A DNA stretch of 64,000 bases from a virus. Numbering within the stretch: the first letter of the stretch is position 1; the number at the start of each line of letters is the position of its first letter. Positions 1-18,274 of this stretch are shown here, piece by piece. The position numbers were made by a program, and so were the translations under genes. The notes below the pieces were generated by a model that saw only the letters and a program-made list of their open reading frames with translations, was not told the origin of the DNA and did not search any database. The stretch is from the UHGV virus genome UHGV-0305822; one strand, 5' to 3'.

Positions 1-31
1 AGTCAGTAATTTATGTCTTCAGCTTGAGAAA

Positions 32-829
32 GTGCCCTTTCACGGTGCGGACATTTTAACTAAACCGGAGCTCGCGTTATTAAGCGGGTTAATTGGTTTT
101 GAAGCAAAAACCATCAAAGTTGAGCAGGAACTTACACGAAACGATTTCGGCTCAACTTGGTACGAAAGTTTCTTCCGCTACGAAATGTTAAGTGATAAAG
201 CTATCAAACTCACTTACCGTTCTACCGACGACATCGTTTACCACATTTTAATTAGCGGCGAACCCCACCAGATTATTGAAGTCGAAGGAGAAAAATCCGT
301 GCGTACCTTAAAAGATGAATTAACTGATTTTGTTAACAAAATTGATAGCGTGGGTATCAGTGAATTATTATTCCCGATTCAACATCCAGAGTTGCTTGAC
401 GAGAAATGTGAAAACATGGTTATGGCGGTGCATTTACTTCCTGACCATCTTGCTATCTACCGTACACTTTCTAAGAACCAACTTAAAGTGTGGTGTCTGT
501 TAAAAGACCTTTTAACAGAGGCGGGGTGGTCGTGTAGTGTAGATGTTAACTGTGAAGGAGTTGCGTTCTTCATCACAATAGGCAATCGTAGTTTTTCTGT
601 CGATTTACCTACTCGCAGCTATTACGATTTCTTCCCGACCGCAGAAGGACGTACTGAAAAAGAACCCGCATTACTGCTCAGTGCTAAGTCGTCCAATGCG
701 CTAATGGCGCAACTAAAGGCAAAAGACGAGAAACTGGATGCTTTACATCTACCTATAATCGGAAAAGATTACGGTTGGGCTGACGTGCAAAAATACGGCA
801 GCCAACTGTTGTTTGTTGCTGACCTTTAA
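32..829 (+). CDS. hypothetical protein, paralog of 897..1670; frame is open to window start so may be 5' partial
   Basis: 265-aa ORF with GTG start; no in-frame stop between position 2 and 32; C-terminal ...QKYGSQLLFVADL matches ...QQHGKQLLFIADV of the next ORF. Confidence 0.6.
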   Translation: MPFHGADILTKPELALLSGLIGFEAKTIKVEQELTRNDFGSTWYESFFRYEMLSDKAIKLTYRSTDDIVYHILISGEPHQIIEVEGEKSVRTLKDELTDFVNKIDSVGISELLFPIQHPELLDEKCENMVMAVHLLPDHLAIYRTLSKNQLKVWCLLKDLLTEAGWSCSVDVNCEGVAFFITIGNRSFSVDLPTRSYYDFFPTAEGRTEKEPALLLSAKSSNALMAQLKAKDEKLDALHLPIIGKDYGWADVQKYGSQLLFVADL

Positions 830-855
830 TAAGTGAAAATACACTTTCTCTAACT

Positions 856-880
856 GCCGCGCTTTAGTCGCGGCTTTTGT
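856..880 (+). terminator. putative intrinsic terminator
   Basis: hairpin gccgcg-ctttagt-cgcggc followed by ttttgtt. Confidence 0.4.
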
Positions 881-896
881 TAAGAAGGAAATAGAA

Positions 897-1670
897 ATGA
901 AAGTCCATTTAGACGATATCTTTAAAACCGAACCGTATATGATCGAAGGTCCGCTAACATCACTACTACTCGCCGATAGATTAGATCGTACGCTGCAATT
1001 ACAATCGATCGAATCTGCACCCGTTGACGATGTAGAGCGTTACGAGCGCATCAACTATACGCGTGGTGAGTATCGTCGCTATAAGCCAAATTCACTAAGC
1101 GTTAAACTTTGGAAAGTAAGCACAGGTAAGGTATTAACTTATCGCACTGTCGGTAGTTATTACATTCAACAAGCCAAAGAATGGCTAGAGAAAGTTAAAG
1201 AACTGAACTTCGATCTACTGAGCAAAAAACTGCGCGATCATAACGCTAGTTTGCCGATACGTAATTATTTCTCCACGATTGAAAATAGCCGTTGTTTCGT
1301 TTCTCGCGAATCCATGATATTACCTGGGGATGATGTTCAGACAACACTAAAAGATGTGGTTGTGAAGAAAATCTTTCATGAATCTGAACACGTTGGGTTT
1401 CGTATCTATCTGACGCACAAGAGACCATTTACCGTGATTCACGTTGTTACCGCACCCGAAGGCTCAGCGGTTATTCGAGAACTTCCTGATGCTCGAGACC
1501 GTTGCCCTAATGAGCCGCTTTATTTAATGTCAGGAACAAAATCAACCGCGTTGATGTCCCGTTACAGCATGTTAGATGTTGTTGACGCTGCTATGAAACT
1601 AGGTTGGAAAGAAGTGCAGCAACATGGTAAACAATTGCTGTTTATTGCCGATGTAAAACTTAATCAATAG
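897..1670 (+). CDS. hypothetical protein, paralog of 32..829
   Basis: 257-aa ORF; SD aaggaaa upstream of ATG; shared C-terminal motif with previous ORF. Confidence 0.7.
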   Translation: MKVHLDDIFKTEPYMIEGPLTSLLLADRLDRTLQLQSIESAPVDDVERYERINYTRGEYRRYKPNSLSVKLWKVSTGKVLTYRTVGSYYIQQAKEWLEKVKELNFDLLSKKLRDHNASLPIRNYFSTIENSRCFVSRESMILPGDDVQTTLKDVVVKKIFHESEHVGFRIYLTHKRPFTVIHVVTAPEGSAVIRELPDARDRCPNEPLYLMSGTKSTALMSRYSMLDVVDAAMKLGWKEVQQHGKQLLFIADVKLNQ

Positions 1671-1682
1671 TGAGGTGGTACC

Positions 1683-2261
1683 GTGTACCGATTAATAGAA
1701 ATGCGAAAAGACGTTTGGTTGGAAAACCTCGTCGATGGGGAGCTTGAGGGAATAGAGCTTTCCTTACCAGAAAGAGCGGACACGGTATTGGTCTTTCTGA
1801 TAAAACAGGCAGCGAAGGAACCGGTAGGAATCTTCAGCGTGGACTATAAAGACCCACGAGGGATTCATTTACGGAACATTTGCAGTGGTTTAGAAAGCTT
1901 ACCGGCTAATCCGTTCTTAAACTACGCAAAACGTAAACTCCAGCCAGGGCAACATCTCTGGGTAGTTCTAGCGCCTGATACACGCATTATACGTGACGAC
2001 CTGACTGCGTTTGTCCAAGCAACGAAAGTCAGTTTGTACAATCCTAATGCGGATCGTACCGATATGCCGTTTACAATCACCTTAGAAGACGATGGAACGC
2101 AAGAGGGTATTGAGGCAATTACGGAATTAGTAAACTCTTATCCGGTAGCGTCTATTGAGTTAGAAAACCCAAACCGATTACCGTTGGGTGATTTACTCGA
2201 ATGGATTGAGCTGAATACCGAGTTCCTCATTAACTCCCGGCAGTACCGGTTCGATGTATAA
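1683..2261 (+). CDS. hypothetical protein
   Basis: 192-aa ORF, GTG start preceded by gaggtgg. Confidence 0.6.
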   Translation: MYRLIEMRKDVWLENLVDGELEGIELSLPERADTVLVFLIKQAAKEPVGIFSVDYKDPRGIHLRNICSGLESLPANPFLNYAKRKLQPGQHLWVVLAPDTRIIRDDLTAFVQATKVSLYNPNADRTDMPFTITLEDDGTQEGIEAITELVNSYPVASIELENPNRLPLGDLLEWIELNTEFLINSRQYRFDV

Positions 2262-2265
2262 CATC

Positions 2266-2299
2266 GGTGGGGGTAAACCCCCCACCTTTTATTTTTTTG
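2266..2299 (+). terminator. intrinsic terminator
   Basis: ggtgggggtaaaccccccacc hairpin followed by ttttattttttt. Confidence 0.65.
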
Positions 2300-2322
2300 T
2301 TCGTTAATATTAAAAATAATTT

Positions 2323-2345
2323 CAGATATATATTACCTAGGTGAG
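2323..2345 (+). promoter_or_regulatory. candidate phage promoter element, copy A (cAGATATATATTACCTAGGTGAG)
   Basis: AT-rich element containing TATATTAC, about 45 nt upstream of ATG 2392; related copies at 59801, 20449, 10961 and 29567. Confidence 0.4.
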
Positions 2346-2391
2346 AGTACAAAAGCTCTCACTTAATAAAACCATTTTAGGAGTATTAAAG

Positions 2392-2763
2392 ATGAAAAAC
2401 GAATTATTTAAAGACCCGTTTGTTGTATTAATGATCGTTACTCGCGCTGCCACTAACCCAGAAAACCTGAAACGTTTACTTACTAACGAAGCATACCTTA
2501 TCGAACAGCGTGACGCGCAGTTAGCCAAACCGCACGCTGAAGGCCAGGCGAAAGACCTTATCTCTATTTTCCGTAACGAAGAATGGCGTAAAAACAACGA
2601 GCTGTCCGACAACTTGACGGTTGCAATTGCAAAACTCTTGACACTGTTCAATCTTGACAAAGACATTAACCAAAGCCTTTCTACAGAAGAGCGTCTGGAA
2701 ATGATAAGAGGTATCGGAGATAGTTATACACAGATTAAAGCATTACCCAACACAGTTATTTAA
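2392..2763 (+). CDS. hypothetical protein, paralog of 59876..60265
   Basis: ORF track starts at 2341 but the ATG at 2392 has SD ttttaggagtattaaag and gives N-terminus MKNELFKDPFVVLMI, identical to the paralog at 59876. Confidence 0.7.
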   Translation: MKNELFKDPFVVLMIVTRAATNPENLKRLLTNEAYLIEQRDAQLAKPHAEGQAKDLISIFRNEEWRKNNELSDNLTVAIAKLLTLFNLDKDINQSLSTEERLEMIRGIGDSYTQIKALPNTVI

Positions 2764-2809
2764 TTTCATAATTTGTGGGAATTTCCCCATAACCCGAAGG
2801 AGCATTTCA

Positions 2810-3271
2810 ATGAAAACCTTTATCACATTCTTAATAACCATTTTAACTTTCGGCCTCAATAGCGCACACGCCGCTATCAACAGCTGGGAACAAATACAAA
2901 ACCCTGGCCAGGCAGTTTACGAAATTGAAGACACCGCCGGAAACGGACTGTCTATCAACTGTGACACAGAAACTGCGAATCGCAAATTTTACGGTCGCAT
3001 GGTTTGGTATTACGGTGAACCCGTAGGTGCAACTAACGCTGAAGATAACACGATGGATATTGTCGTAAACGGCAAAACCTATAACATCCCTACCGTGGAC
3101 GGTAGTGACAAAGCAGAACACGCTTGGGTTGCTTTCGTTAATGCTATCGGTAATGCCAAAACTTTCAGTGTGAGTATCAATGGTAACGATGCCGCTAACT
3201 TTACCGTAGAAGGCGAACGTCTGTCTGAAACTTTCTTCCAAAACTGTGGACACACCCGTCCTAACAAATAA
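2810..3271 (+). CDS. small secreted protein (predicted signal peptide)
   Basis: N-terminus MKTFITFLITILTFGLNSAHA-AIN looks like a Sec signal with AxA cleavage site; 2 Cys in mature part; SD gaaggag. Confidence 0.7.
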   Translation: MKTFITFLITILTFGLNSAHAAINSWEQIQNPGQAVYEIEDTAGNGLSINCDTETANRKFYGRMVWYYGEPVGATNAEDNTMDIVVNGKTYNIPTVDGSDKAEHAWVAFVNAIGNAKTFSVSINGNDAANFTVEGERLSETFFQNCGHTRPNK

Positions 3272-3293
3272 TTATTAGTCTTTTTTAGAGTGC

Positions 3294-3686
3294 GTGAAAA
3301 TGAATATCAGAACTATACTTTATACCATCATTATTTTCTGTGCGGTCGGAATTACTGGCACTTATGCTTTCGGTGATTCGGATGTCCGCTATTACGAACC
3401 GGCTCCTGACTCACCGATTATCAACCCGGATGAGACGCCTACGTTAATGCGCAGTTTCGGTAAACTACAAGTTTATCGTTTAGTGCGTGGTGAAACGTGT
3501 ACGGGATTACTCATTGCTGACACCCGTGCACAAGTCTACCAACGTCTGACGGATATCGCCTGCGAACAACCAAAGGTAATGTCGGTTAGCATCCATCCGC
3601 TATCAGTTGGTAACTATACCGCTGTGGACTTCTTTCACAACGCCGAATTAATCGGACGCGTTACCTTAAATCGTCCTGCCGAATAA
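3294..3686 (+). CDS. small secreted or membrane-anchored protein
   Basis: hydrophobic N-terminus ILYTIIIFCAVGITGTYAFG; start could be GTG 3294 or ATG 3300. Confidence 0.6.
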   Translation: MKMNIRTILYTIIIFCAVGITGTYAFGDSDVRYYEPAPDSPIINPDETPTLMRSFGKLQVYRLVRGETCTGLLIADTRAQVYQRLTDIACEQPKVMSVSIHPLSVGNYTAVDFFHNAELIGRVTLNRPAE

Positions 3687-3704
3687 TCTAAAGGAGTAGT
3701 TACA

Positions 3705-4190
3705 ATGAAACGTTTACACACTCTGATGTTCTTTCTGGTTTTCTTGTTTATCGGTGTCACACCAAGTGTAGATGCGGCCTCCGTAGACGAATTGCTTACC
3801 TGTGATGGAAACGCTTGGGAAGGTCAGCCAAATGCGTGCCCAAACATCAACGACTTGTACGATACCGATAAGTCGTTTAAAGCCGTTGTTGATAAAACAT
3901 TAGACCCTGTGGGACTGGATGGTATGTTCGGCTCTAAAGGTTACATGGATGGCCCTGGCGGTAACATGTATCCGGTAAACATCAACAACAAAATCTGGAT
4001 TGAAAGTGGCGGTTGTAAAGCTAACGCTTGTGGTTGGGAATACATCGTAACGCTATACAACCCACACACCAAGAAACTCGTCGGTTATTACTACAACATC
4101 GACCCCGGTTATCTGATCTGGTTCGGTGATATCGGTGTTGCCGAATTCGCTTACCTGGTTAAGAAATACGTAGAACAATCTAAATACTAA
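3705..4190 (+). CDS. small secreted Cys-containing protein
   Basis: signal-like N-terminus MKRLHTLMFFLVFLFIGVTPSVDA; 6 Cys; SD taaaggag. Confidence 0.7.
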   Translation: MKRLHTLMFFLVFLFIGVTPSVDAASVDELLTCDGNAWEGQPNACPNINDLYDTDKSFKAVVDKTLDPVGLDGMFGSKGYMDGPGGNMYPVNINNKIWIESGGCKANACGWEYIVTLYNPHTKKLVGYYYNIDPGYLIWFGDIGVAEFAYLVKKYVEQSKY

Positions 4191-4201
4191 GGACTTTTAT
4201 C

Positions 4202-4612
4202 ATGAAAACTATCATCAATACTCTTCTCATTGCAATGGCTGTTCTGTTCTCTGTCAACGCTACAGCAAAAACAATACAGTTGCCAGACAATATTAAGTAC
4301 GTCAATAGCACCGATGATTTCTATTGTACGGAAATTGACGGCTTGTACTGCCAGGCGAAGAGTCTGTTTAAATACAAAGGTAGCAGATACGTATTCATCG
4401 TTGAGCAGGGTGGTGCCTGGTGTTACGACAGCCCAATGTCCGTACTCAACCTCGAAACGTGGAAGGCCCAACGTCTCGAATACAACGACAAACGTCTGTG
4501 CTCTGGTAATAACAAACCATTCTTCGAAGTCGTAGATGGTGTGCCAATGGTAGGGATATTAGACACTTCGGAAAAACCTATCGTTGTAGCTATGGATAAA
4601 CTTAAAATTTAA
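4202..4612 (+). CDS. small secreted Cys-containing protein
   Basis: signal-like N-terminus MKTIINTLLIAMAVLFSVNATA; 4 Cys. Confidence 0.7.
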   Translation: MKTIINTLLIAMAVLFSVNATAKTIQLPDNIKYVNSTDDFYCTEIDGLYCQAKSLFKYKGSRYVFIVEQGGAWCYDSPMSVLNLETWKAQRLEYNDKRLCSGNNKPFFEVVDGVPMVGILDTSEKPIVVAMDKLKI

Positions 4613-4622
4613 GGAGTAACTC

Positions 4623-5012
4623 ATGCGTCTCGTCTGCGTTTTAGCATTCTTCTTCTCCCTGAGTGTAGCAGCATCTACTCAAGTTAACGATTTACTGCTA
4701 ACCCCAAACAACAATACCGATTACCAGTACAATCCTCCGGGGTTTGAAGTTTGTGAAGTCGGTGAAACAATCTGCCAAGAAGTCGGCGCAGACGGGCGCT
4801 ATATTCTGGTAAAAGCTGATGGTGGCACAATGTGTCCCGCAGGTTATTACTTTCTGCTCGATTCCGTCGCAAGAGAGGTTCTTCCTATCACCACGAAAAC
4901 GTGCGACCCTACCGTTGTCTTAACTCTCGCTAAAAGCAAATCTCGCGACCGTTACCTGATCGTTATCGAAGAACGGGGCAAGATGGCTGGTGCTATCGAA
5001 TTAGATCATTGA
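4623..5012 (+). CDS. small secreted Cys-containing protein
   Basis: signal-like N-terminus MRLVCVLAFFFSLSVAAS; SD taaggag. Confidence 0.7.
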   Translation: MRLVCVLAFFFSLSVAASTQVNDLLLTPNNNTDYQYNPPGFEVCEVGETICQEVGADGRYILVKADGGTMCPAGYYFLLDSVAREVLPITTKTCDPTVVLTLAKSKSRDRYLIVIEERGKMAGAIELDH

Positions 5013-5022
5013 GTGTAGTCTT

Positions 5023-5049
5023 GGCCCCGATACGTTCGGGGTCCTTTTT
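5023..5049 (+). terminator. intrinsic terminator
   Basis: ggccccgatacgttcggggtcc hairpin followed by ttttt. Confidence 0.65.
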
Positions 5050-5078
5050 ACGACATGTTTACCTAAAGGAGTATTAAA

Positions 5079-5555
5079 ATGCAATTATCTAACGTTTACC
5101 AAGCTGCGCAATTTCATCATGACCTGTCGGCTAAACCTGAACAAATTCGCCACAACTTAACGGTGGCCTGGAAACTGCTGCGTATCGCCGAAGCCTCGCG
5201 CCTTAACGATCAGTCGACGATTATCGAAACGGTGCGCACACTACATCCAGTCGACCTGGAAACAATCTGGACCTTTGATTTAACCCGAATTTATCACCGT
5301 CGTTTTAATGCGGCAGTTGATGCGATCCGTCCTTACTTTCACCACCTGCGAACAACACGCGAAAATGACACCGCACTTGAGTGGGTATTGGTACAAAGCG
5401 TATGGAGCGACTACATTTATCTCCTTTCTTTAGAGACGGGTGAATGTATCGTTGCTAACGAAGTTTTTTCAAGTAACGCAGAAATGTATCGTTCCTTCGC
5501 GACGATTAAAGGTGAAACACAACCTATTTTATCACTCACGCACTTAGGGCTGTAA
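5079..5555 (+). CDS. hypothetical protein
   Basis: 158-aa ORF with SD cctaaaggagtattaaaATG. Confidence 0.65.
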   Translation: MQLSNVYQAAQFHHDLSAKPEQIRHNLTVAWKLLRIAEASRLNDQSTIIETVRTLHPVDLETIWTFDLTRIYHRRFNAAVDAIRPYFHHLRTTRENDTALEWVLVQSVWSDYIYLLSLETGECIVANEVFSSNAEMYRSFATIKGETQPILSLTHLGL

Positions 5556-5557
5556 TT

Positions 5558-5591
5558 AGCCCGGCCCCGTTTACTCGGGGCTTCTTTTTTT
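5558..5591 (+). terminator. intrinsic terminator
   Basis: gccccgtttactcggggc hairpin followed by ttcttttttt. Confidence 0.6.
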
Positions 5592-5611
5592 GATCTAAAA
5601 GGAAAGACCAG

Positions 5612-6220
5612 ATGAACGAAATTACATTAGTTCGTTTTCTTGAAGCGATGCAAAATGCAGAGCGCTTTTCGCATACGCCTTTATTCATTGACTTAATGGA
5701 AGAAGAAGTAGAGGGCTTCCTGGCATACCCACGCTTACGGGAATATTTTAAACGCAAAACACCGACTGCTTACGAAAAGTTGGTTTACGCGCTTGAAAAC
5801 AGTACAACACTGTTAACGTCGCCTTTTAAGGCGTTGGAGGCTTTAGACCCGGCTGGTACCACAAGTATCCCACAACGTGTTGTGTTCTACTATATCGACC
5901 ACGATCGAATTAAAGCCGATGTTGTTAACTGGATCTCTGAAAACGCAGTTCCTGAAACACGCACTTTTAATCTCTGTCCCGTAGAAGAAGGGTGGAAGGT
6001 CGGTAGCCACTATTCTTACCCGTACCAATCCATTAAATCGCCGTTTTTATACCCGGTTTATCTGGATGATGTTACACCTGGAAATTGTATCCCGGTAACA
6101 AATCTGATCTGTACATTGACAATGGAAGTCTTAGCCACAAAGGCGGGACAGGTTTGGGTAGAAAACACGAAGAACGTCGATTATTGGACTTCAATGGGTT
6201 ATCACCTGTACACCAAATAA
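5612..6220 (+). CDS. hypothetical protein
   Basis: 202-aa ORF; SD aaaggaaag. Confidence 0.65.
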   Translation: MNEITLVRFLEAMQNAERFSHTPLFIDLMEEEVEGFLAYPRLREYFKRKTPTAYEKLVYALENSTTLLTSPFKALEALDPAGTTSIPQRVVFYYIDHDRIKADVVNWISENAVPETRTFNLCPVEEGWKVGSHYSYPYQSIKSPFLYPVYLDDVTPGNCIPVTNLICTLTMEVLATKAGQVWVENTKNVDYWTSMGYHLYTK

Positions 6221-6225
6221 CGTTT

Positions 6226-6268
6226 GGGAGAACCTTCGGGTTCTCCCTTTCTTTATTTTTTTCTTTTT
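6226..6268 (+). terminator. intrinsic terminator
   Basis: gggagaaccttcgggttctccc hairpin followed by a T-rich run. Confidence 0.65.
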
Positions 6269-6298
6269 ACACCACACTCCGTCTTTATGGAGGTGGGT

Positions 6299-8803
6299 AT
6301 GCTAAAAGTTGAACGCATTATACTCAAAGGTTTTACGGGGATGGGGTTACATGAAATTGAAACCTTCGATTTCACTATCCAGTCTCCAACAACAATTATC
6401 CTGGGTGGGAACGGCTGCGGGAAAACCAGTCTACTGTCTGTGTTCTTACCCTTAGCACCGGCTAAAACCGAATTTAGGGACGGCGGTTCTTACACAAACT
6501 ACTGTTTAGTTGGCGATCAACGCTATCGATTCAAAGTTGCCCGTAAAGGCAACTCTTTGGTTTGTGATATTGAGAACTTGACCACGGGGACAAAGATCGT
6601 CGAGCAAGGTAATGCGAAAGTCTACAACTCCCGTGTTGAAGAAATCACGGGTATTACGAAAGAGATTAAAGAACTATTAAATGGTGAGGTGTTGTTAACC
6701 GATGCGGGAACCGAATTACGCCGCAAATGGTTTTACCGTTTAAGTACCTCTGACCTCACTTACGCGTTAGGGTTTTATCAGCGTTTACGTAAAAACCTTA
6801 CTGCCTTAAATGGGGGTATTGAAATCACCAGCCGCAAGATCGCCGAATTACGGACGCGTGTTATTGAGAACGAGGAAGAACGGCAGCAGTTAGCGACGAG
6901 ATTAAAAGGTTTGGAATCGGATTTACGTGAACTGAACCGAGAAATCGAACAGTTGCCAGGATTAAATCGTGCCGTCACCATCGAAACAATCCAAGCGTTA
7001 TTAAACAGCTTGGGCCCAACCATCGACGCAATATTACAACATCGTGGTGGCCTGCCTACTGATGAACAGATACTGACCGCGCGACAAAACGAAGCTACGG
7101 CCCGCGAAGCTGTCGTGTCTACTGAAACAGAGGTATCGATGTTGAATAAAGACTTGTCGTTATTAATGGATGAGTCGACACGACAAGACTACCTGATGCG
7201 GAATCACGAAGGTCTCAAGAATACGCTGGCACGTTTACGTGAGTTACTTACCAAATGGGACACCGAACATCTCTTTCCGGGTCTATTTAACGACAACATC
7301 AATTTAGACCAACTTCGTGCGGCTACAGATGCGCGTGTTTGGGGGCAACGGTTGGGAACAACACTAGACGCAATTCATTCAACCGAAAAACTTAACGTTT
7401 TGGAAGAACGACTTCTGGTGATGGATCAAAAAACCGCAGGGATGCGGGATAGACTCCAGCGAGTGGAGAACGTTTTACAGAATTTAAATCACGAACGTAA
7501 TCACTACTTAGAAACAGCGGAAGTGGATTGCCCGCAGTGTCGGTTTAAGTTTCGGCCCGGTGTTACGCGTTCTTTACCTGAACTTGAGTCTTCGATTCGC
7601 GGACAACAACAGCAGCGCACGGAACTGCAAACACAGTTAGAGGCCCTATTACGCGATCGTGTTGAATTAGAATCTGATGTAACTTATATGCGGCAGGTTC
7701 GTGAGATTGTACTGACGTATTCAAAGGACCCGGTATTGAGCATGTTCTTTAAGCGTTTGCAAGAACGTAACGTTTTCACAGAATCACGCGAACAGTTCGG
7801 GAGTCTATGCGCAGCGTTTGACAGTGAGTTGTACTCTGCTATTGAGTACCATGAAACCCGACAACGGTTAGTGAAGGCGGAAAAAGAATGGCAGGATGCC
7901 GTAGCGGCCGTTGGTAACGTCGATGGTGCTTTACAACAGAAAATCGCCTTCCAACAGTCACGATTAGGTAAAGCCACAGAAATGCTCTCAATGCGTCGTA
8001 GAGAGCACGAACTGGCTAACACGACACTTACCTATCTGGTGAATGTTAAACGTGCTGTAGATGATTTCAGTGCGTTATTCGAACGGTTAGAGAGTGATGT
8101 TAAGGTTACGTTGACAAATACGGTCGTCGAGGAACTCTTACGTGCACGAGAAGGGAAGCTGGATGCTTTTACAACCGCACGCGAACGTTATCGTCAGATG
8201 GAAAATGAATTGAATCAGCTCAACAGTTTGGAACGCGAACTTGCTGACTTACAAGCCCAGCAGTTCAATAACAAACTGATGATTCAAGCCTTCTCGCCAG
8301 AAAAGGGTGTACTTAGAAAGTATTTTTACAACGCTATCGTTAGAATCACAGAGTTAATGACGCGTTATATCGAACAAGTCTGGACGTACCCCATGCGCGT
8401 TATGCCTTGTGACCTCACTGACGGCGATTTGGATTATACTTTTCCTGTCCAGCTAAAAACGCATCCTGAGCCTGTTCCTGACGTGCGTAAAGGGTCTAAG
8501 GCGCAGCGTGCGATATTTAATCTGATGTTCAGGCTGACCGCGTACAAAGCGCTGAAGTTGCATCAGTTTCCGTTGCTTTTGGATGAGCCTTCGGAAGGCA
8601 TGGATGAGGAGCACCGTAACAACCTGGTCGGCTTTATTAAAACGTTAGCAAACTCGGGAGAATTTTCTCAACTGTTGGTAGTCTCCCACGAAGCCGAGGT
8701 TCATTCTAAACTTAATGAAGCATCGTACTGTGTCATCGAACCGGAAGGGGTGACATTGCCTGCGGTGTATAACGAAGGAGTAAAAATTGTTTATGCAAAC
8801 TGA
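6299..8803 (+). CDS. SbcC/Rad50-like recombination ATPase (SMC-like)
   Basis: Walker A GGNGCGKTS at 6404..6430; long coiled-coil-like middle; CPQC zinc-hook-like motif at 7529..7540; Walker B LLLDEPSEGMD and VVSHEAE near C-terminus. Start moved to ATG 6299 (MLKVERI) after ggaggt, because the track start at 6224 sits inside the upstream terminator. Confidence 0.7.
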   Translation: MLKVERIILKGFTGMGLHEIETFDFTIQSPTTIILGGNGCGKTSLLSVFLPLAPAKTEFRDGGSYTNYCLVGDQRYRFKVARKGNSLVCDIENLTTGTKIVEQGNAKVYNSRVEEITGITKEIKELLNGEVLLTDAGTELRRKWFYRLSTSDLTYALGFYQRLRKNLTALNGGIEITSRKIAELRTRVIENEEERQQLATRLKGLESDLRELNREIEQLPGLNRAVTIETIQALLNSLGPTIDAILQHRGGLPTDEQILTARQNEATAREAVVSTETEVSMLNKDLSLLMDESTRQDYLMRNHEGLKNTLARLRELLTKWDTEHLFPGLFNDNINLDQLRAATDARVWGQRLGTTLDAIHSTEKLNVLEERLLVMDQKTAGMRDRLQRVENVLQNLNHERNHYLETAEVDCPQCRFKFRPGVTRSLPELESSIRGQQQQRTELQTQLEALLRDRVELESDVTYMRQVREIVLTYSKDPVLSMFFKRLQERNVFTESREQFGSLCAAFDSELYSAIEYHETRQRLVKAEKEWQDAVAAVGNVDGALQQKIAFQQSRLGKATEMLSMRRREHELANTTLTYLVNVKRAVDDFSALFERLESDVKVTLTNTVVEELLRAREGKLDAFTTARERYRQMENELNQLNSLERELADLQAQQFNNKLMIQAFSPEKGVLRKYFYNAIVRITELMTRYIEQVWTYPMRVMPCDLTDGDLDYTFPVQLKTHPEPVPDVRKGSKAQRAIFNLMFRLTAYKALKLHQFPLLLDEPSEGMDEEHRNNLVGFIKTLANSGEFSQLLVVSHEAEVHSKLNEASYCVIEPEGVTLPAVYNEGVKIVYAN

Positions 8804-8972
8804 TTGGTTCCGTCGTATTGTGGATGCGGCAGGGTTTGGCTTCATGTCCATTCTAGCGGTTCTTTATGTCATGTTTTGTGTGGTGATGATTTTATGGGTA
8901 GTTTCATCTTATCTGATTAAACTATCGTGGGGTTCAATTTGGCGTCAACGCGAATGCGAATGGCGGAATTAG
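8793..8972 (+). CDS. small membrane protein
   Basis: 59 aa, hydrophobic helix FGFMSILAVLYVMFCVVMILWVV; SD aaggag before ATG 8793. Confidence 0.45.
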   Translation: MQTDWFRRIVDAAGFGFMSILAVLYVMFCVVMILWVVSSYLIKLSWGSIWRQRECEWRN

Positions 8973-8982
8973 GAGAGGGAAT

Positions 8983-9081
8983 ATGGTTGTAGGGGTTCTG
9001 TTAACACTTGGCTCGTTGTGGTTAATTGGTAAAGGTTTAAACTGGCTGATTAAACGTCACCGTTGGGCGTTCGAAGATTAA
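8983..9081 (+). CDS. small membrane peptide (32 aa), putative
   Basis: SD aggagaggg then ATG; MVVGVLLTLGSLWLIGKGLNWLIKRHRWAFED; too short for the ORF track. Confidence 0.3.
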   Translation: MVVGVLLTLGSLWLIGKGLNWLIKRHRWAFED

Positions 9082-9138
9082 CCACCCAAATAATCCAGAA
9101 GATACCCTCCGGTGTGAGGGTATTGACAGGAGCAGAAA

Positions 9139-9267
9139 ATGACCACGATAAACGCTACGAATGTAGCGATATCCGCACTATACGACGCGGAACTTTCATG
9201 GGGTGGATTAATGATCACCACAGCCATATTAGCCGCTGCGGCTTTCGTCATCGCGCGTTGGTTTTAA
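9139..9267 (+). CDS. small membrane peptide (42 aa), putative
   Basis: SD caggagcag then ATG; C-terminal hydrophobic helix LMITTAILAAAAFVIARWF; preferred over the overlapping 9063..9317 track ORF. Confidence 0.3.
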   Translation: MTTINATNVAISALYDAELSWGGLMITTAILAAAAFVIARWF

Positions 9268-9298
9268 TTTTACTTTTTTGCGTCTCTAAGGTTTGCAA

Positions 9299-9742
9299 AT
9301 GGAAATTTATTTGTTGAACGCATCTTCTAAAGTCGGTGAACGACAAGCTGCCGATTTACTCAAACTACACTACCGTTACTTGGACCACCAGGCTACATTA
9401 CTGAAAATCAAAACGTCGGTGCCGAAGTTAAATGCGCGACAGCTGATCGAAGGTAACTGCATAGTTCTGGTGTATCAGGATGATGTCGCGGTAGGATACT
9501 GTAGTTATCGGAATCGTAACGGTTCACTTAAGATACGTTCGGTATACGTGCTCCCAGACTATCGTCAACGGGGTGTAATGAAAGAGATTTTCAAAGCAAT
9601 TGCAGCTGATGAAGTTTTCGGCGAGATTGTTACTGGCATGTATGCGAAATGTAAAGAAGCAAAAGAGTATTTCATCCGACGCGGCTATCAAGCGGTTTAC
9701 TCACACGATCGTGAGTGGGTCGATTTTAGCAAAACATTCTAA
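9299..9742 (+). CDS. GNAT-family N-acetyltransferase
   Basis: GNAT motif-A-like segment VYVLPDYRQRGVMKEIFKAI; typical size of about 147 aa. Confidence 0.55.
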   Translation: MEIYLLNASSKVGERQAADLLKLHYRYLDHQATLLKIKTSVPKLNARQLIEGNCIVLVYQDDVAVGYCSYRNRNGSLKIRSVYVLPDYRQRGVMKEIFKAIAADEVFGEIVTGMYAKCKEAKEYFIRRGYQAVYSHDREWVDFSKTF

Positions 9743-9808
9743 AAACAATAAAGCTCTCTTGGCGTACCTCACTATGAGTGTGAGAAATTTACGTCAGGAG
9801 AGCTAATT

Positions 9809-10054
9809 ATGTTAAAATCGTACGGAGTGGGTGGTTTGGATACGAGTATTTGTTGGAAAGAATACGAACGTGCGAAAGCGTTCTTACAGCATCCCAATGT
9901 GGGGACGATAGGTAAGGTCTGTTTCGGCAAACCTTCACTGACGGCTTGTATCCAAGGGGCTTTAGGGACGTTGCCACCCGAATCACATTTCGAGCCTGAG
10001 GAGAATATGAATGTTCACAGAGAACCCATCAATTTACGGCATACCGTTGAATGA
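9809..10054 (+). CDS. hypothetical protein
   Basis: 81-aa ORF; SD caggagagc. Confidence 0.45.
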   Translation: MLKSYGVGGLDTSICWKEYERAKAFLQHPNVGTIGKVCFGKPSLTACIQGALGTLPPESHFEPEENMNVHREPINLRHTVE

Positions 10055-10379
10055 AATTGATATTCTGCAAATTTGTTATCAATGTGGTGACTTCGGTAAG
10101 ACGCAGGTAACGCCGTTAGTTAAGCTTTTAGGTTACTTGCCTGAAATCGAGTTGCCTTTTGTTAAACCCAGTTTAGTTCGTCGCGCATCGTGTCGTGAAG
10201 CTTATTTGCTCTGGAAACACAATATTTCAGTAGAGAATGTCTGGGACCGTATGAACGATCATCAGTTCCGTGAGCAGGTCGTCCACACGCTTAACTTGTC
10301 ACTGACTATGCAGCGCCTGGGCTTACAACACGAAGGTTTAGAAGCGGCGGTCAAGCAATGGATTACGAAAAATCGATAA
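10011..10379 (+). CDS. hypothetical protein
   Basis: 122-aa ORF; SD gaggag; overlaps the 3' end of the previous ORF in another frame. Confidence 0.5.
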   Translation: MFTENPSIYGIPLNEIDILQICYQCGDFGKTQVTPLVKLLGYLPEIELPFVKPSLVRRASCREAYLLWKHNISVENVWDRMNDHQFREQVVHTLNLSLTMQRLGLQHEGLEAAVKQWITKNR

Positions 10380-10403
10380 TGGGTAAAACATATATCGCTA
10401 TAC

Positions 10404-10964
10404 TTGTCGAGCTATCAATCGGCGGTACACGTTTTAATACTACACATCAACTCCGGGCGTTTCGTTATGTTAACGGTACGTAAAGAATCTGAAATTGGTA
10501 ACGATCTTTTTAATGCGCCCGAAGACTATAAAGTCGTTACCATTAACTGCGTAGGAGCGATGGGTCGCGGTATTGCACTCGCGTGTCGTGAACGCTACCC
10601 CAACCTTTATCAGGATTATCGTAAGCGGTGTCGTGAAGACGAAATTAAGATTGGAAGCGTTTACGTTTACTCTGACGAAAAGTGTATCTTGCTCCCCACG
10701 AAAACACATTGGCGTTTAAAATCCCAGGTTTCTTATGTTACTGCGGGCATTACCGCATTAGCAGACTGTGTTGAGGATCTGGATACCAGCGTTGCTATCC
10801 CTCCGTTGGGAATGGCAAATGGGTGGTTAGATTCCTGGGAAAGACAAGAAATCTTTTTGTGGCTTTACAAAAAACTTGAACCGAGGAGGCAGCGCTACAC
10901 GTTATACTTACCTGATAAGCTGTACCAAGAAGCAGAGTCATTAATTCCAAACTCTTTTAAATAG
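10404..10964 (+). CDS. macro-domain-like protein (possible ADP-ribose binding or processing); start uncertain (TTG 10404 or ATG 10467)
   Basis: segment VVTINCVGAMGRGIALACRERYP resembles the macro-domain loop N-x(6)-GGGV-x(2)-AI; later VAIPPLGMANGW resembles the second macro Gly loop; by-eye comparison only. Confidence 0.35.
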   Translation: MSSYQSAVHVLILHINSGRFVMLTVRKESEIGNDLFNAPEDYKVVTINCVGAMGRGIALACRERYPNLYQDYRKRCREDEIKIGSVYVYSDEKCILLPTKTHWRLKSQVSYVTAGITALADCVEDLDTSVAIPPLGMANGWLDSWERQEIFLWLYKKLEPRRQRYTLYLPDKLYQEAESLIPNSFK

Positions 10965-10984
10965 ATATTATCATTAGGGCACAC
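10961..10984 (+). promoter_or_regulatory. candidate phage promoter element, copy D (ATAGATATTATCATTAGGGCACAC)
   Basis: related to the AGATAtATATTAcC element; upstream of the SLT gene. Confidence 0.3.
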
Positions 10985-11064
10985 AACAAAGGAGTATTAG
11001 CTGTCCGCGCCGTCATTTCGTCTTACGGAATACGGAAATGTATAAATCCAACTGGAGAAACAAA

Positions 11065-11763
11065 ATGTTTCGTATCTTCTTTCTTTTACTGGTAACACTT
11101 TTCGCGTTTAACGCACAGGCGTCAACGTCAACGCCACATTCTAAGCATCAGCGTGAGTTTGCACAAATCCAACATCGGTTCGAAAAAGTCAGCCCGTTAA
11201 TTGTGGAAATCTCACGAAAGCAGGGCGTTGATCCCAAGCTGATGATTACGCTGATTTATCGTGAATCGCGTTTTGATCCCAAGGCTTACAACAAAAGCTC
11301 ACGAGCGCACAGCCTGGTACAAATGCTTCCAAGTACCAAGCGTAATCTGCTAAAGCTTTATGGAAAAGAATTAGGTCTTAGTCAGAACGCCGATTTGTAT
11401 AATCCGCGTAACGCTGTTTTGCTGGCTACCGCGTATGTTAAACATCTTGAGAAGGGGTTAACCAAACGACTCAAACGCAAGCCCACCATGGCTGAAATTG
11501 CGTTAGCTTACCACTGGGGTGAAAGTGGCGCTCACACGCGAATCAAAAGCAAATCTCGAGCAGCACAACGAGAAATGGCAGGCTTTATGAAAGACGCCGC
11601 GTTCTATAGCGCGAAAATCGATGTGCCTGTTGTTGTGGGCTCGGCCCCACGTCAGCTTGCGTTTGCGAAGAAAACACCACGTCAGATTCAACTGGCGGAA
11701 GTTAGTAGAATTTGGGATACGATAAACATGAGTTTTCCAATCAATAGAGGAGTTACCCTTTGA
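11065..11763 (+). CDS. secreted soluble lytic transglycosylase (SLT domain)
   Basis: signal-like MFRIFFLLLVTLFAFNAQA; SLT motifs ...LIYRESRFDPKAYNKSSRAHSLVQMLPST...; ATG 11065 after ggagaaac (the track ORF starts at 11038). Confidence 0.7.
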   Translation: MFRIFFLLLVTLFAFNAQASTSTPHSKHQREFAQIQHRFEKVSPLIVEISRKQGVDPKLMITLIYRESRFDPKAYNKSSRAHSLVQMLPSTKRNLLKLYGKELGLSQNADLYNPRNAVLLATAYVKHLEKGLTKRLKRKPTMAEIALAYHWGESGAHTRIKSKSRAAQREMAGFMKDAAFYSAKIDVPVVVGSAPRQLAFAKKTPRQIQLAEVSRIWDTINMSFPINRGVTL

Positions 11764-12269
11764 GCATCGTAGTAACCGATTGGTATAAAGGCATTACAAA
11801 AGCCGCACAATTGACCGCGAAAGACGTTTACAGTATCGTCCGAAGCAGTATCGAAGACGAGATTAAGTCGGATGAAGAATTCGCAGAGAAACACGAATTT
11901 TACGATGCTTTACCCACAGCATTCGGTGACGACGAAGAAGAAGGTTTAGAGTTTGACTGGAACGTCAACCTTGCCTTGTTGTGGATTTGTGGTTTACGAC
12001 CAACGGTAAAAGAAACCGAAGAAGGGAAAGTCTTGCTTTGGAATTTTACCGGGCAGTATAACCGTAATTTAGTCTTTAAACAGGCGTATATGGACGCTAC
12101 TGTAGAACTTCAAAATCTACTGCTTGGCGAAAACACATACTGCCAACGCAGTTTCTTAACGATTCTGGAAAAACTTGTGTCGACACACAAAGTCTGGCGT
12201 AAAGAAGACGCCCCGGAACATATGTTCATTTTAGAGTACGCTGTCATTCCAAATCAGCCGTTCTTCTAA
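11760..12269 (+). CDS. hypothetical protein
   Basis: 169-aa ORF, TTG start overlapping the upstream stop; SD gaggag. Confidence 0.5.
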   Translation: MSIVVTDWYKGITKAAQLTAKDVYSIVRSSIEDEIKSDEEFAEKHEFYDALPTAFGDDEEEGLEFDWNVNLALLWICGLRPTVKETEEGKVLLWNFTGQYNRNLVFKQAYMDATVELQNLLLGENTYCQRSFLTILEKLVSTHKVWRKEDAPEHMFILEYAVIPNQPFF

Positions 12270-12273
12270 CCTC

Positions 12274-12314
12274 TACCCCTTACCCTATACGGAGTAAGGG
12301 GTACTTTTATTTTC
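12274..12314 (+). terminator. intrinsic terminator
   Basis: ccccttac...gtaagggg hairpin followed by tacttttatttt. Confidence 0.55.
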
Positions 12315-12335
12315 ATTCCCTAAAGGAGCAGAGTT

Positions 12336-12815
12336 ATGATAAAATTCATTTGGCGTTATCCAACGCGTTTTTGGTTTGTGGTACTTGAACTGTGTATGGT
12401 TCTTGTAGCGGTTACTTTTGTCGAAGCACCCGCCTCGCAGTTGGCCATTTTCTGCCTTTTCGTGACTGTCCCTGTATGGGTGATTGCGAAGGTTATTAAG
12501 TTCGTCATGGTGTGTTGGGCGAATTATACCTGTCCGTATAAGCCTAAACAAATCATGAAATGGCTGATGTATATTGAAGAACGTTTACCGGCGCAACATA
12601 AATTACTGGGCTGGTCGTCAATGTTGGATATTGCGCTAGAAACCAATGCAAAGTTCCCCGGTGCGAAAAACCCGTATTTGTTGATGGCGGTAATTGTTGC
12701 ACAACAAAAACTGGCAGGTGACCGTTGGTTGCCAGAAGAAGCGAAAGCGTATATCCGTAAACATCCAAAAGCTTTTTACTCGGTAGGACAATGGCGTAAC
12801 TTGCCTTTATTTTAA
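12336..12815 (+). CDS. integral membrane protein
   Basis: multiple hydrophobic segments (FWFVVLELCMVLVAVTF, LAIFCLFVTVPVWVIAKVI); SD taaaggagc. Confidence 0.65.
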   Translation: MIKFIWRYPTRFWFVVLELCMVLVAVTFVEAPASQLAIFCLFVTVPVWVIAKVIKFVMVCWANYTCPYKPKQIMKWLMYIEERLPAQHKLLGWSSMLDIALETNAKFPGAKNPYLLMAVIVAQQKLAGDRWLPEEAKAYIRKHPKAFYSVGQWRNLPLF

Positions 12816-12868
12816 CTTTTTACATAACCCTTAGTTGATTTGAACAAACCTAAAAGAGGACTATTAAA

Positions 12869-13804
12869 ATGACTTTTCCATCTGAAGTAATTTACGAACT
12901 GGCTAACACTCTACGTCGTCACTATAGCAGCAAAATGATGCAAACCCACGTGGGTGCGACTGCTGACTTTTTGCGCGGCCATTTCCTGGGCAATAACCCA
13001 CCGTCGATTACACAGGAAACGGTTTTCTCTATCGATCGTGCCTCCTTAATTCTTCCAATCGACCACGCCATTGCGGTTCAAGAAGGGAATACGTTCAACT
13101 TCTCTATGGGAATGCGACATTCGTCTAATGTCGTTAACTCAAGCATGGGAAATGACCCGTCTTTCGCACACAACACGCACTCTGTAGAACATGGTAACTG
13201 GTTCGTTGCTGTAGAACAAGGCGTGAATCAGTATGACGTTGTTGCAGCTCGCGATGAGTCTTTCTTTGAGCTGGGACAGATTTCTCGCCGTCGTGAAATT
13301 GCGCTTGACCTACGTCAAGGTAATATCGGATTAAGTGGGACCAGTGTTTATTTCATCCTGAGCAGTTGGGCACATGTAAGTTACGTGCTGAAAAATGCCA
13401 GCCCGACGTTCCACGCAACGATGGTAGAATTTCGTAGCCTTGATGTAGGAAATCATGACGAAGAAGAAACGGTACCTAGCACAGAAGTCGCCGTCTGTGA
13501 AGACTACGATGATCTGAAATCTGTACTCGTTAAGCGTGATGTTTTCGAATCGTTAAACCTGGATTTCCCCGGTGACGAAAATGAAATATCCGTAGCTGAT
13601 CTGGTAGAAGCGTTGTGTCAGAAAGACCAAGCTAATGAGATCAGTGACGAAGAAGCAGAACTCTTCCAAGTTCAACAACTCGTCAGCAAGGTTATCGGTG
13701 GACAGGGAATCGTTGACACTCTTATGGCTCTACCGCCGAAGAAACGTACTCAGAAGTACATTCGTGAACTGGTTCTTGAAAACCTTGGTCAAACCAAAAA
13801 GTAA
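12869..13804 (+). CDS. hypothetical protein
   Basis: 311-aa ORF; SD aaagagga. Confidence 0.65.
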   Translation: MTFPSEVIYELANTLRRHYSSKMMQTHVGATADFLRGHFLGNNPPSITQETVFSIDRASLILPIDHAIAVQEGNTFNFSMGMRHSSNVVNSSMGNDPSFAHNTHSVEHGNWFVAVEQGVNQYDVVAARDESFFELGQISRRREIALDLRQGNIGLSGTSVYFILSSWAHVSYVLKNASPTFHATMVEFRSLDVGNHDEEETVPSTEVAVCEDYDDLKSVLVKRDVFESLNLDFPGDENEISVADLVEALCQKDQANEISDEEAELFQVQQLVSKVIGGQGIVDTLMALPPKKRTQKYIRELVLENLGQTKK

Positions 13805-13810
13805 TTTAAA

Positions 13811-13846
13811 TCCCCTACTCCTCCGGGAGTAGGGTTAATTCTTTTT
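13811..13846 (+). terminator. intrinsic terminator
   Basis: cccctactcctccgggagtaggg hairpin followed by a T-run. Confidence 0.65.
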
Positions 13847-13865
13847 CCACCTTAGGAGTATTAAA

Positions 13866-14417
13866 ATGTTTCCATCGTCTGAATATTTAACTCATCTGGC
13901 TTACGGTATTCGCCGTGGTTCTGTTTTCCGCACACGTTTAAAGGATATAAATTTCCTGGCTAATTTCTTATTTGATCGTTTGTGGGATGGCGATAGTGTT
14001 TACAAAAAGATCACCGTAACACAACTTTATTCCCTTATAGCAGCATCTGAAATTGTGCCTACTGATATTCGTCGATTTAAACGACAGCATAACGGGGAGG
14101 TTACAATCAGCTTTCTTGATCGTTCTCCTATTACCGTTGAAATCGACGATCGTATTGACGCTAATAGTGAAATGTCTGGTTGGAAGATTCTGTTTGATTG
14201 TGGCAATCGTTATGCGGTACTTGGTTCCTCTGATGAGCGCGACTTCCCTTTCGACAAACCTTACTACTACCTCAGTGAAGATGATTTCCCGGATAAAGAA
14301 TCTAACATCTTTTTAAACGGAGACACAGTTTACTTCATTTTTCGTACCTGGAACGATGTTGCTGCTATGATTGCTCAAGGCGTCATCGATTACCGTAAAC
14401 TAGAAGTCGACATTTAA
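13866..14417 (+). CDS. hypothetical protein
   Basis: 183-aa ORF; SD ttaggagtattaaaATG. Confidence 0.65.
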   Translation: MFPSSEYLTHLAYGIRRGSVFRTRLKDINFLANFLFDRLWDGDSVYKKITVTQLYSLIAASEIVPTDIRRFKRQHNGEVTISFLDRSPITVEIDDRIDANSEMSGWKILFDCGNRYAVLGSSDERDFPFDKPYYYLSEDDFPDKESNIFLNGDTVYFIFRTWNDVAAMIAQGVIDYRKLEVDI

Positions 14418-14428
14418 AATAAAAGCTA

Positions 14429-14460
14429 CCCTACTCCTTCGGGAGTAGGGTAATCTTTTT
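14429..14460. terminator. bidirectional intrinsic terminator between convergent genes
   Basis: ccctactccttcgggagtaggg hairpin flanked by an A-run upstream and a T-run downstream. Confidence 0.6.
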
Positions 14461-15082
14461 AGTTAACTAACCCGTTAGCTTTAAGAATCTCTAACATTTG
14501 GTTGTTTAACTCTTTTAATTTTTTGTTCTCTTCTGTCAACGCAGCAACTTTCTCACCTAATGGAATAGATTCACGAATTTTATTTTTTCGTGCCGCTTCC
14601 ATCTGCAAGTGTTGTTCCTCCGTTACCTTCCCTTCATACTCGAGCGTTGTAATTTCAACTTTCGGCTCAATCCCTAGTGTATGCGTGAGAATATCTGAAA
14701 CGTCTTTTGTTATAGACGACACTTTCACGTAATCCGGTACCAGTGCCAAATCTACCACTAACACATTTCGTTGATACGTGATCCCGGATAAACCTGGGTA
14801 TGATTCCAGATAGGTGTCAGGTATGTATACAACTTGACCGTCCCGAGATTTAAATGTCAGAATAGACGCACTAACATTCGCATCTGCTAAATATTCTTCA
14901 CGTCCTAGCCCTACTGGCTGGTAATACGAGTTATAAACGTCAATATTCTGACGTACTAAATCTGGGAAGGTACGTGACGCTTCTACCGTATAAATGACCG
15001 TCTCGGCTAAAGTAAATGGTGTTTTTACTTTAAACAGTCCCGTGGTGTTGACCGGTACCTGGAGTGGTAAACGCGTAGCCAT
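14459..15082 (-). CDS. hypothetical protein (C-terminal coiled-coil-like segment)
   Basis: 207-aa minus-strand ORF separated by 3 nt from the upstream minus gene. Confidence 0.6.
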   Translation of the reverse strand: MATRLPLQVPVNTTGLFKVKTPFTLAETVIYTVEASRTFPDLVRQNIDVYNSYYQPVGLGREEYLADANVSASILTFKSRDGQVVYIPDTYLESYPGLSGITYQRNVLVVDLALVPDYVKVSSITKDVSDILTHTLGIEPKVEITTLEYEGKVTEEQHLQMEAARKNKIRESIPLGEKVAALTEENKKLKELNNQMLEILKANGLVN

Positions 15083-15085
15083 TCA

Positions 15086-16459: not shown

Positions 16460-16484
16460 AATTAAAAATACTCCGAGGTGAGCA

Positions 16485-17447: not shown

Positions 17448-17450
17448 CAC

Positions 17451-17493
17451 CCCCTCCTGTACCCATTCGTGGTACAGGAGGGTCTTTCTTTTT
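17451..17493 (+). terminator. intrinsic terminator
   Basis: ccctcctgtacc...ggtacaggaggg hairpin followed by tctttcttttt. Confidence 0.65.
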
Positions 17494-18272: not shown

Positions 18273-18274
18273 GA

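Follow-up and report, generated by a model that had tools for sequence, protein, structure and literature searches.

The two genes that begin at positions 2392 and 59876 of the window, the 64,000-nucleotide stretch of virus genome UHGV-0305822 analysed here, are true diverging paralogs as judged by sequence comparison, and are referred to below as copy A (at locus A) and copy B (at locus B). We consider it likely that they are old paralogs placed behind standard early promoter cassettes with which they were not co-duplicated, and that they exchange segments; they may also have an early role in host interaction. Most of this picture is accounted for by already-known kinds, namely early genes that form a paralogous family and, in an SPN3US-like jumbo phage, its standard cassette of the predicted early type. 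Modestly new are the constant head and variable body with conversion between the loci, the covarying leader hairpin, and a family link between gp249 and gp250 of SPN3US.

Genomic context

The window comes from a jumbo phage of the SPN3US type, related to phiKZ, that carries genes for a virion RNA polymerase. The order of its proteins follows that of the Salmonella jumbo phage SPN3US: the block at 1683..6220, which holds locus A, corresponds to gp177–gp185, the ORFs at 48951..58126 to gp240, gp241, gp243, gp244 and gp245 (56–86% amino acid identity), and the block at 58127..62620 to gp246–gp254. SPN3US gp240 and gp241 are annotated as beta subunits of RNA polymerase (RNAP), and gp244 is a C-terminal piece of beta′ that is present in virions (PMC7598289). 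With homologs of gp240, gp241 and gp244 in the window (Table 1), the genome encodes a virion multisubunit RNAP; a Pfam search with these RNAP-type ORFs gave no match.

Searches with the stretches 1..25000 (high stringency) and 1600..3400 (lower stringency) returned, among the matches listed, no close DNA relative of the window in 50,697 sequenced phages, and a 225-kb IMG/VR contig is ~97–98% identical to it. Megablast with 1..25000 gave short matches that were at least 99% identical in 16 records and 95–99% identical in 5 more. Close relatives are found as contigs of 223–228 kb in NCBI isolate assemblies (P0007, P0016, P0020, P0033, P0042 and P0053), whose host labels are Salmonella enterica (several serovars), Escherichia coli and Enterobacter ludwigii, and contigs of this size in isolate assemblies suggest carriage of the jumbo phage in the sequenced cultures.

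Other repeated features are present in the window. The adjacent ORFs at 32..829 and 897..1670 form a local paralog pair with a common C-terminal domain of ~65 residues, the end of which, G(S/K)QLLF(V/I)AD(L/V), is also the C-terminus of SPN3US gp175. An all-against-all comparison returned two tandem pairs of distant paralogs, 22852..23778 and 23785..24702 (24% identity, E 1e-18) and 12869..13804 and 13866..14417 (23% identity, E 2e-5). Long perfect palindromes with stems of 11–13 bp and T-rich tails on both strands, resembling bidirectional terminators, are located at 59741..59769 and 62625..62651, the latter at the meeting point of the plus-strand unit and the minus-strand structural genes.

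The two paralogous genes

Copies A and B align without gaps over 118 residues, of which 68 are identical (58%; BLASTP, E 7e-48), and the similarity therefore extends well beyond the first 15 residues. The identical N-terminus pointed out in an earlier note on this DNA holds at the nucleotide level, the first 44 coding nucleotides being the same in both genes, and a synonymous difference first appears in codon 15. The same note had described a diverged protein middle, which is evident as a segment at residues ~47–58 where the copies cannot be aligned, and a Cys-rich segment in copy B. The latter description does not stand as given: the segment contains only C-P-C, two other cysteines are located elsewhere in the protein, the C-P-C stretch varies among copy-B alleles (CSC, CPY and CPD also occur), and the four cysteines are not conserved among alleles.

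In the mechanical ORF list, copy A starts at GTG 2341. This codon lies within the promoter core, and all homologs (45/45) begin MKNELF, so the start was assigned to ATG 2392. An antisense ORF pair, 2337..2666 and 59977..60237, was discarded as a mere mirror of the sense-strand homology. The earlier suggestion that additional copies should be sought was followed within the window by all-against-all BLASTP and with the N-terminal DNA pattern; neither returned a copy beyond A and B, and the gene next to copy B emerged as a distant third paralog at the profile level (see below).

Between copies A and B, dS is 1.15–1.4, which is near saturation, and dN is 0.37–0.45. The resulting dN/dS, for which the earlier note had proposed an estimate, is about 0.3. 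These coding-sequence distances indicate that the duplication is old and that the copies are under purifying selection.

Table 1. Features of the two loci and RNAP-type ORFs, in window coordinates
Feature	Position	Strand	Description
Terminator-like hairpin, locus A	2266..2296 (hairpin 2266..2286)	+	GGTGGGGG-TAAAC-CCCCCACC plus T run; ends upstream unit (gp177-like gene 1683..2261)
Promoter cassette, locus A (predicted early, virion RNAP)	2300..2345	+	AT-rich upstream part TTAATATTAAAAATAATTTC; 22-nt core AGATATATATTACCTAGGTGAG at 2324..2345
Leader hairpin, copy A	2338..2365	+	TAGGTGAGAG / CTCTCACTTA, loop 6–8 nt; begins inside promoter core
SD AGGAG, copy A	2379..2383	+	8 nt before ATG
Copy A	2392..2763	+	123 aa, predicted all-helical; paralog of the gp249 type that heads its unit; presence varies among relatives
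Identical 44-nt tract (head)	2392..2435 = 59876..59919	+	Codons 1–14 plus two bases of codon 15
RNAP-type ORF	48951..50570		86% identical to SPN3US gp240
RNAP-type ORF	50580..54746		76% identical to SPN3US gp241
RNAP-type ORF	56557..57291		86% identical to SPN3US gp244
Terminator-like hairpin, locus B	59741..59769	.	13-bp stem; T-rich tails on both strands; ends gp248-like gene 59181..59732
Promoter cassette, locus B (predicted)	59779..59824	+	AT-rich upstream part; core AGATATATTTTACTTAGGTGAG at 59803..59824; orthologous to SPN3US 223277 cassette
Leader hairpin, copy B	59819..59847	+	AGCGTTGTA / TACACGCT, one bulge; same position relative to core, sequence unlike that of copy A
ATTCGACTGT box	59844..59853	+	Variant of AATCGACTAT box between hairpin and SD
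SD AGGAG, copy B	59863..59867	+	8 nt before ATG
Copy B	59876..60265	+	129 aa; syntenic ortholog of SPN3US gp249
gp250-like gene	60267..60656	+	129 aa; tandem to copy B; distant third paralog; CRDPF...WR motifs

Constant head and exchange of gene bodies

The genome L020 is a 223.6-kb contig in the assembly of an E. coli isolate. Its identity to the window is 96.7% up to position 59917, which lies in codon 14 of copy B, and 96.9% from 60297 onward. Between these two positions L020 and the window have no detectable nucleotide similarity, and the L020 allele encodes a 141-aa protein that is ~40% identical. In the alignment this is a replaced gene body whose borders are sharp, one at the constant head and the other where the next gene starts. 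The gp250-like gene is unreplaced in L020 except for its first ~10 codons. The possibility that allele type follows host genus was considered and rejected: the 141-aa allele is found in both E. coli and Salmonella assemblies, and there is thus no simple allele–host link.

Exchange between the two loci is seen in L029. The locus-A gene of this genome is A-like upstream, 100% identical to a locus-B allele (that of L008) over codons ~12–43 (~100 nt), and 83–93% identical to the locus-A allele of L017 after codon ~43, a pattern that indicates ectopic gene conversion from B into A, as far as can be read from the sequences. Mosaic alleles are found in L011 and P0029; the B allele of L011 has a B-type 5′ half and is of a different type in its 3′ half.

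The gene bodies have diverged and been exchanged as described, and the head is constant. Between A and B, codons 1–15 contain 1 synonymous difference over 7.3 sites, compared with a pS of 0.63 elsewhere (p about 0.01, a weak binomial estimate from few sites). One explanation would be that purifying selection alone, on the N-terminal helix and/or the translation-initiation region, has kept the identical 5′ tract and N-terminus and that conversion is incidental. The N-terminus MKNELFKDPFVV is nearly invariant across the allele classes of the clade, even in alleles that are ~40% identical overall, and the N-terminal 20 residues are packed as helices in the structure model with pLDDT values of 90–93. 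Moreover, the synonymous sites of codons 1–12 are also conserved between orthologous alleles of different genomes, and the tract is A/T-rich, as expected of an unstructured initiation region. Selection as the only cause is nevertheless difficult to reconcile with the N-terminus of SPN3US gp249, MTNQLRQDPFVAMML, which differs and implies that most of the residues are dispensable, with the stretch of ~100 nt transferred from B to A at 100% identity in L029, and with the border of the replaced body in L020, which coincides exactly with the end of the tract, the position predicted if the tract acts as a recombination arm. We regard selection alone as possible, if rather unlikely. On the other hand, the near invariance of the N-terminal helix at the protein level across the clade, with a modelled pLDDT >90, counts against conversion as the sole cause, and the comparison of A with B is a weak test with its ~7 synonymous sites; the constant head could be kept by selection. 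The two causes are compatible, and selection on the N-terminal helix and recombinational homogenisation probably both contribute to the constant N-terminus.

The promoter cassette

As the earlier note had described, both genes are preceded by a terminator, a shared element and an SD, in the same order. The 22-mer AGATATATWTTACYTAGGTGAG within the shared element occurs exactly twice in the window, at the two positions given in Table 1 and on the plus strand in both cases, and none is expected from 100 shuffles. The AT-rich cassette core can be written as ATATATTAC, and both window sites, as well as every cassette of SPN3US, of phiEaH2 and of the near-identical contig, have a core ATATATWTTAC following AAAATWATYTY. 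In the DNA searches with 1..25000 and 1600..3400, the ~60 nt around the 22-mer are, among the matches listed, the sole stretch that matches sequenced phages. They match 74 records, several times per genome, in jumbo phages of Salmonella, Escherichia, Erwinia, Proteus and Cronobacter. Conservation of the cassette is 82–88% across the Salmonella, Escherichia, Erwinia and Proteus phages and weaker, ~76%, in Cronobacter CR5.

SPN3US has 7 strong cassettes, all on the plus strand, intergenic and mostly behind terminator-like hairpins, which precede gp5, gp55, gp66, gp101, gp135, gp180 and gp249, as well as four weaker variants. The near-identical 225-kb contig has 6, before genes for proteins of 213 aa, 164 aa, 119 aa (HTH-like) and 47 aa and before copies A and B, and phiEaH2 has 5, before unrelated genes. 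All of the cassettes in the window (2), the near-identical contig (6) and the strong set of SPN3US (7) are on the strand of the gene. The cassette before gp180 in SPN3US (165687) is syntenic with that of locus A, and it is located 57.6 kb from the cassette before gp249 (223277), the same spacing as in the window; both promoter positions are hence probably older than copy A.

A generic element of this kind, standing before unrelated genes in several phage genera, fits the predicted class of phiKZ-like early promoters that are read by the virion RNAP, by analogy with better-characterized phages. A conserved AT-rich motif centred near −10 is described upstream of early operons for every RNAP-encoding jumbo phage (PMC7598289). 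Phage 201phi2-1 has 6–8 such early promoters, all ahead of hypothetical genes (PMC11512511), and in those of phiKZ an extended −10 box is combined with a T-rich part upstream, the 5′ UTRs measuring 31–40 nt (PMC8244752). Like the early promoters of phiKZ, 201phi2-1 and AR9, the cassettes have a conserved AT-rich core (ATATATATTAC) and a T/A-rich upstream part, they are few per genome, they head units of small hypothetical genes, usually after a terminator, and they reside in a genome with split multisubunit RNAP genes. They differ in being longer, with ~33 nt conserved and reaching TAGGTGAG, and in running into a covarying leader hairpin, often with a AATCGACTAT box. A literature search found no promoter mapping or transcriptome for phages of the SPN3US group, and the early timing, the dependence on the virion RNAP and the position of the transcription start are inferences from these analogies.

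Another repeated signal in place of an early promoter, be it a promoter used at the middle or late stage or by host sigma-70, or a binding site of a phage regulator or partition protein, appears improbable. The cassette has a greater length, and a stronger conservation between genera, than would be required of a minimal promoter, and one SPN3US copy has a terminator-like hairpin before the gene, both of which would suit such a signal. But every copy lies between genes in the orientation of the gene that follows, in most cases behind a terminator-like hairpin, and the AT-rich core, low copy number and small hypothetical genes downstream match the described early class. Sigma-70-type promoter matches were not enriched and none coincided with a cassette, and upstream sequence is hardly conserved at the late promoters of phiKZ-like phages (PMC7598289).

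The SPN3US copy with the additional hairpin is that before gp180, at 165687..165790 (L005 15687..15790), where the leader hairpin is followed by a terminator-like hairpin and T run (GGCTACCTTCGGGTAGCC TATTCTTTTTT). This second hairpin does not exist in the window cassette at locus A. In SPN3US, it could give rise to a short early RNA or act as an attenuator.

Leader sequences and the origin of copy A

Every cassette can form a hairpin that directly follows the core and overlaps it, and the stem sequences differ. The copy A hairpin has a dG of −15.2 kcal/mol (z −7.0), that of copy B −7.6 kcal/mol (z −1.1, which alone is not significantly stable), and those of the 7 strong SPN3US cassettes have z values from −1.7 to −5.8. 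The arms covary: over 12 cassettes, pairing of each cassette's own arms gave a mean of −8.2 kcal/mol, compared with −5.0 kcal/mol for swapped arms, and 0/5000 permutations were as low. The inferred structure is probably a stem-loop at the mRNA 5′ end with a stabilising function, and it may also have a role in promoter recognition at the DNA level. Rfam 15 gave 0 matches in the window or in the two leaders, the best sub-threshold hit scoring 23.8 bits against a cut-off of 65. The AATCGACTAT box is present in most cassettes across genera, in SPN3US and its relatives, and is absent from the copy A leader. Both copies have AGGAGTATTAA 8 nt ahead of the ATG.

From the core to the SD, the copy A leader shares only 56% identity with that of copy B, with many gaps. 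With the leader of the unrelated 164-aa early gene, at another place in the genome, it shares 83%, the first 21 nt being identical. From AGGAG onward, copy A resembles copy B and is unlike the leader of the 164-aa gene. Copy A thus has the appearance of a gp249-type coding region that was attached, at the SD, to the leader of another cassette. The more distant genomes L017 and L019 have positional orthologs of copy A with the same leader type. Between the window and the near-identical IMG/VR contig, the copy A leader has 7 differences per 100 nt against a background of ~2–3, a contrast that is too weak to interpret.

Among relatives, the gene content of locus A varies. SPN3US has the cassette there without either a gp249-like gene or a gene for a 153-aa protein. 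Four IMG/VR relatives, in which the flanking gene is 91% identical, have the cassette directly before the 153-aa signal-peptide gene and lack copy A. In L017 and L029 a copy A allele is present and the 153-aa gene is absent, and L023 and the window have both. Going by these gene arrangements, the slot behind the locus A promoter gains and loses small genes.

The earlier note had proposed that gene and promoter-like region were duplicated together. Of this, the diverging paralogs are confirmed; the joint duplication of promoter, SD and gene as one segment to a site 57 kb away, with copies that are now diverging, is very improbable. The equal order of elements at both loci, the shared 22-mer, and the near identity from the SD through codon 15 are what such an event would leave. 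The cassette, however, is generic, with 6–7 per genome before unrelated genes, and it occupies locus A without the gene in SPN3US and the four close relatives; the regions upstream of A and B look alike because both carry this genome-wide element. Furthermore, the copy A leader from core to SD is unrelated to that of copy B and matches that of another early gene, and a young duplication that still left 44 nucleotides identical cannot be reconciled with a dS >1 in the gene body.

The protein family and a third paralog

Copy B has the gp248-like (NT5C-like) gene on one side and the gp250-like and HD-domain genes on the other, in a region where gp245–gp252 are collinear, and has the same promoter, hairpin and SD order as SPN3US gp249, of which it is the positional ortholog. 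Copy A lies in the gp177–gp185 block and not at the position of gp249. Both match PHROG 27024, the family of gp249, with E values of 6.5e-11 (copy A) and 2.3e-10 (copy B), and tblastn to SPN3US gp249 gave an E value of 9e-7. SPN3US gp249 differs from the copies in having 35–37% identity over the first ~70 residues, another N-terminus, and no second copy at the gp180 locus. Copy B is the most diverged gene of its block, with 35% amino acid identity to SPN3US compared with 43–86% for its neighbours.

The model of copy A consists entirely of helices (pLDDT 87.6, pTM 0.83), and the protein is thus predicted with confidence to adopt an all-helical fold. Its sole structural neighbour is a 131-aa protein of Erwinia phage Stratton (TM 0.75, 14% identity), which we take to be the product of the single gene between early cassette and HD-domain gene. 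An exhaustive HMM search of 1.84 billion representative proteins returned 9 clusters (at 50% identity), of which ~8 belong to the family; P0050, a 973-aa repeat protein, was judged spurious. Searches of Pfam, PHROG and the literature for a function gave only "unknown function".

The gp250-like protein is related to the family at the profile level. Profile–profile comparison with hhalign gave a probability of 92.3% and an E value of 5.4e-7 over 93 columns, whereas pairwise BLASTP against copies A and B and single-sequence hhalign against the family were not significant; the match to PHROG 27024 is weak (E 0.007). SPN3US gp250 (PHROG 23206) is likewise predicted to belong to the same family at the profile level, has the same length and the DPF and WR motifs, and neighbours the copy B position, but its pairwise similarity to A and B is not significant. 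The gp250-like gene evolves more slowly than copy B (43% compared with 35% identity to SPN3US). In phiEaH2 and in L062, a 246-kb IMG/VR contig, the place between early cassette and HD-domain gene is taken by a single gene for 131–134 aa. The product of the L062 gene matches copy A (2e-10), copy B (4e-11) and the gp250-like protein (2e-8), and the single gene of phiEaH2 matches the gp250-like subfamily only.

Proposed history and function

Both genes would be first cistrons of units that start at standard cassettes, each an AT-rich stretch with AGATATATWTTACYTAGGTGAG, and by analogy with phiKZ-like phages the virion-packaged RNAP would read these cassettes immediately after infection. Transcription would start in or just after GTGAG, and the mRNA would begin with the covarying hairpin, which probably stabilises its 5′ end, followed by the strong AGGAG SD. 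The family appears to be confined to this phage lineage and to consist of all-helical proteins of 123–141 aa with an N-terminal K/RDPFV helix and a central WR motif. Its history probably started from one copy between an early promoter and the HD-domain gene, as in phiEaH2 and L062. An old tandem duplication would then have given the gp249-like and gp250-like genes of SPN3US and the window, and an extra gp249-like copy would have been placed behind another early cassette 57 kb upstream, only in this clade and not in all of its members. The gp249-like copies would keep a constant head, composed of the SD and the first ~14 codons, and swap segments by ectopic gene conversion, and whole bodies would be swapped between near-identical phages with the constant head and the downstream gene as homology arms.

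Similarities are noted with promoter-proximal "moron"-like slots and the mosaic early regions of large virulent phages, where the exact interval between a promoter and the first conserved gene is the place at which a small gene comes or goes, and close relatives trade alleles, the borders being sharp and placed at conserved sequence. Here, in contrast, the inserted gene is a paralog from the same genome, and the two copies keep exchanging sequence. Behind copy A, at 2810..5012, five consecutive small ORFs (153, 130, 161, 136 and 129 aa) have hydrophobic starts that resemble signal peptides. Three of them match SPN3US gp180, gp182 and gp183, and the counterpart of the first ORF in one relative has a Pfam YfjT match. 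This stretch looks like an early unit for small exported proteins, perhaps with roles in modifying the envelope or in superinfection exclusion.

With respect to function, we propose an early protein that would interact with the host or counter its defences, with a target that varies among hosts; this role is inferred only from the early position, the rapid divergence and the allele swapping. Going further, the constant early promoter, leader and first 14 codons, together with an exchangeable body at two mutually converting sites, might constitute a selected architecture with which SPN3US-like jumbo phages quickly re-assort variants of an immediate-early effector that neutralises a variable host factor or defence, an extension that we consider unlikely. 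On this extended reading, the DPF/WR helical protein would represent a new class of jumbo-phage counter-defence or takeover protein. A dedicated diversification device, in which the two loci with their constant head serve as expression sites for variant bodies as in cassette-based antigenic variation, would fit the constant promoter, leader and head, the variable bodies with sharp borders, the inter-locus transfer and the mosaic alleles (L011 and P0029), but it is highly improbable, since neither silent cassettes nor a recombinase nor specific recombination sites were seen, each genome has only two or three copies, and ordinary homologous recombination among co-infecting relatives plus selection explains all of the patterns.

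The cassette analysis provides a testable map of the probable immediate-early transcription units in the SPN3US group, and the first gene of two such units is the fastest-evolving and most recombining one of its neighbourhood, which is the signature expected of a host-range or anti-defence determinant. SPN3US-type phages are considered for biocontrol of Salmonella and Erwinia, and many clinical assemblies of Salmonella, E. coli and Enterobacter contain relatives in the form of contigs of ~225 kb; genetics could therefore sensibly begin with a small early gene whose alleles can be swapped.
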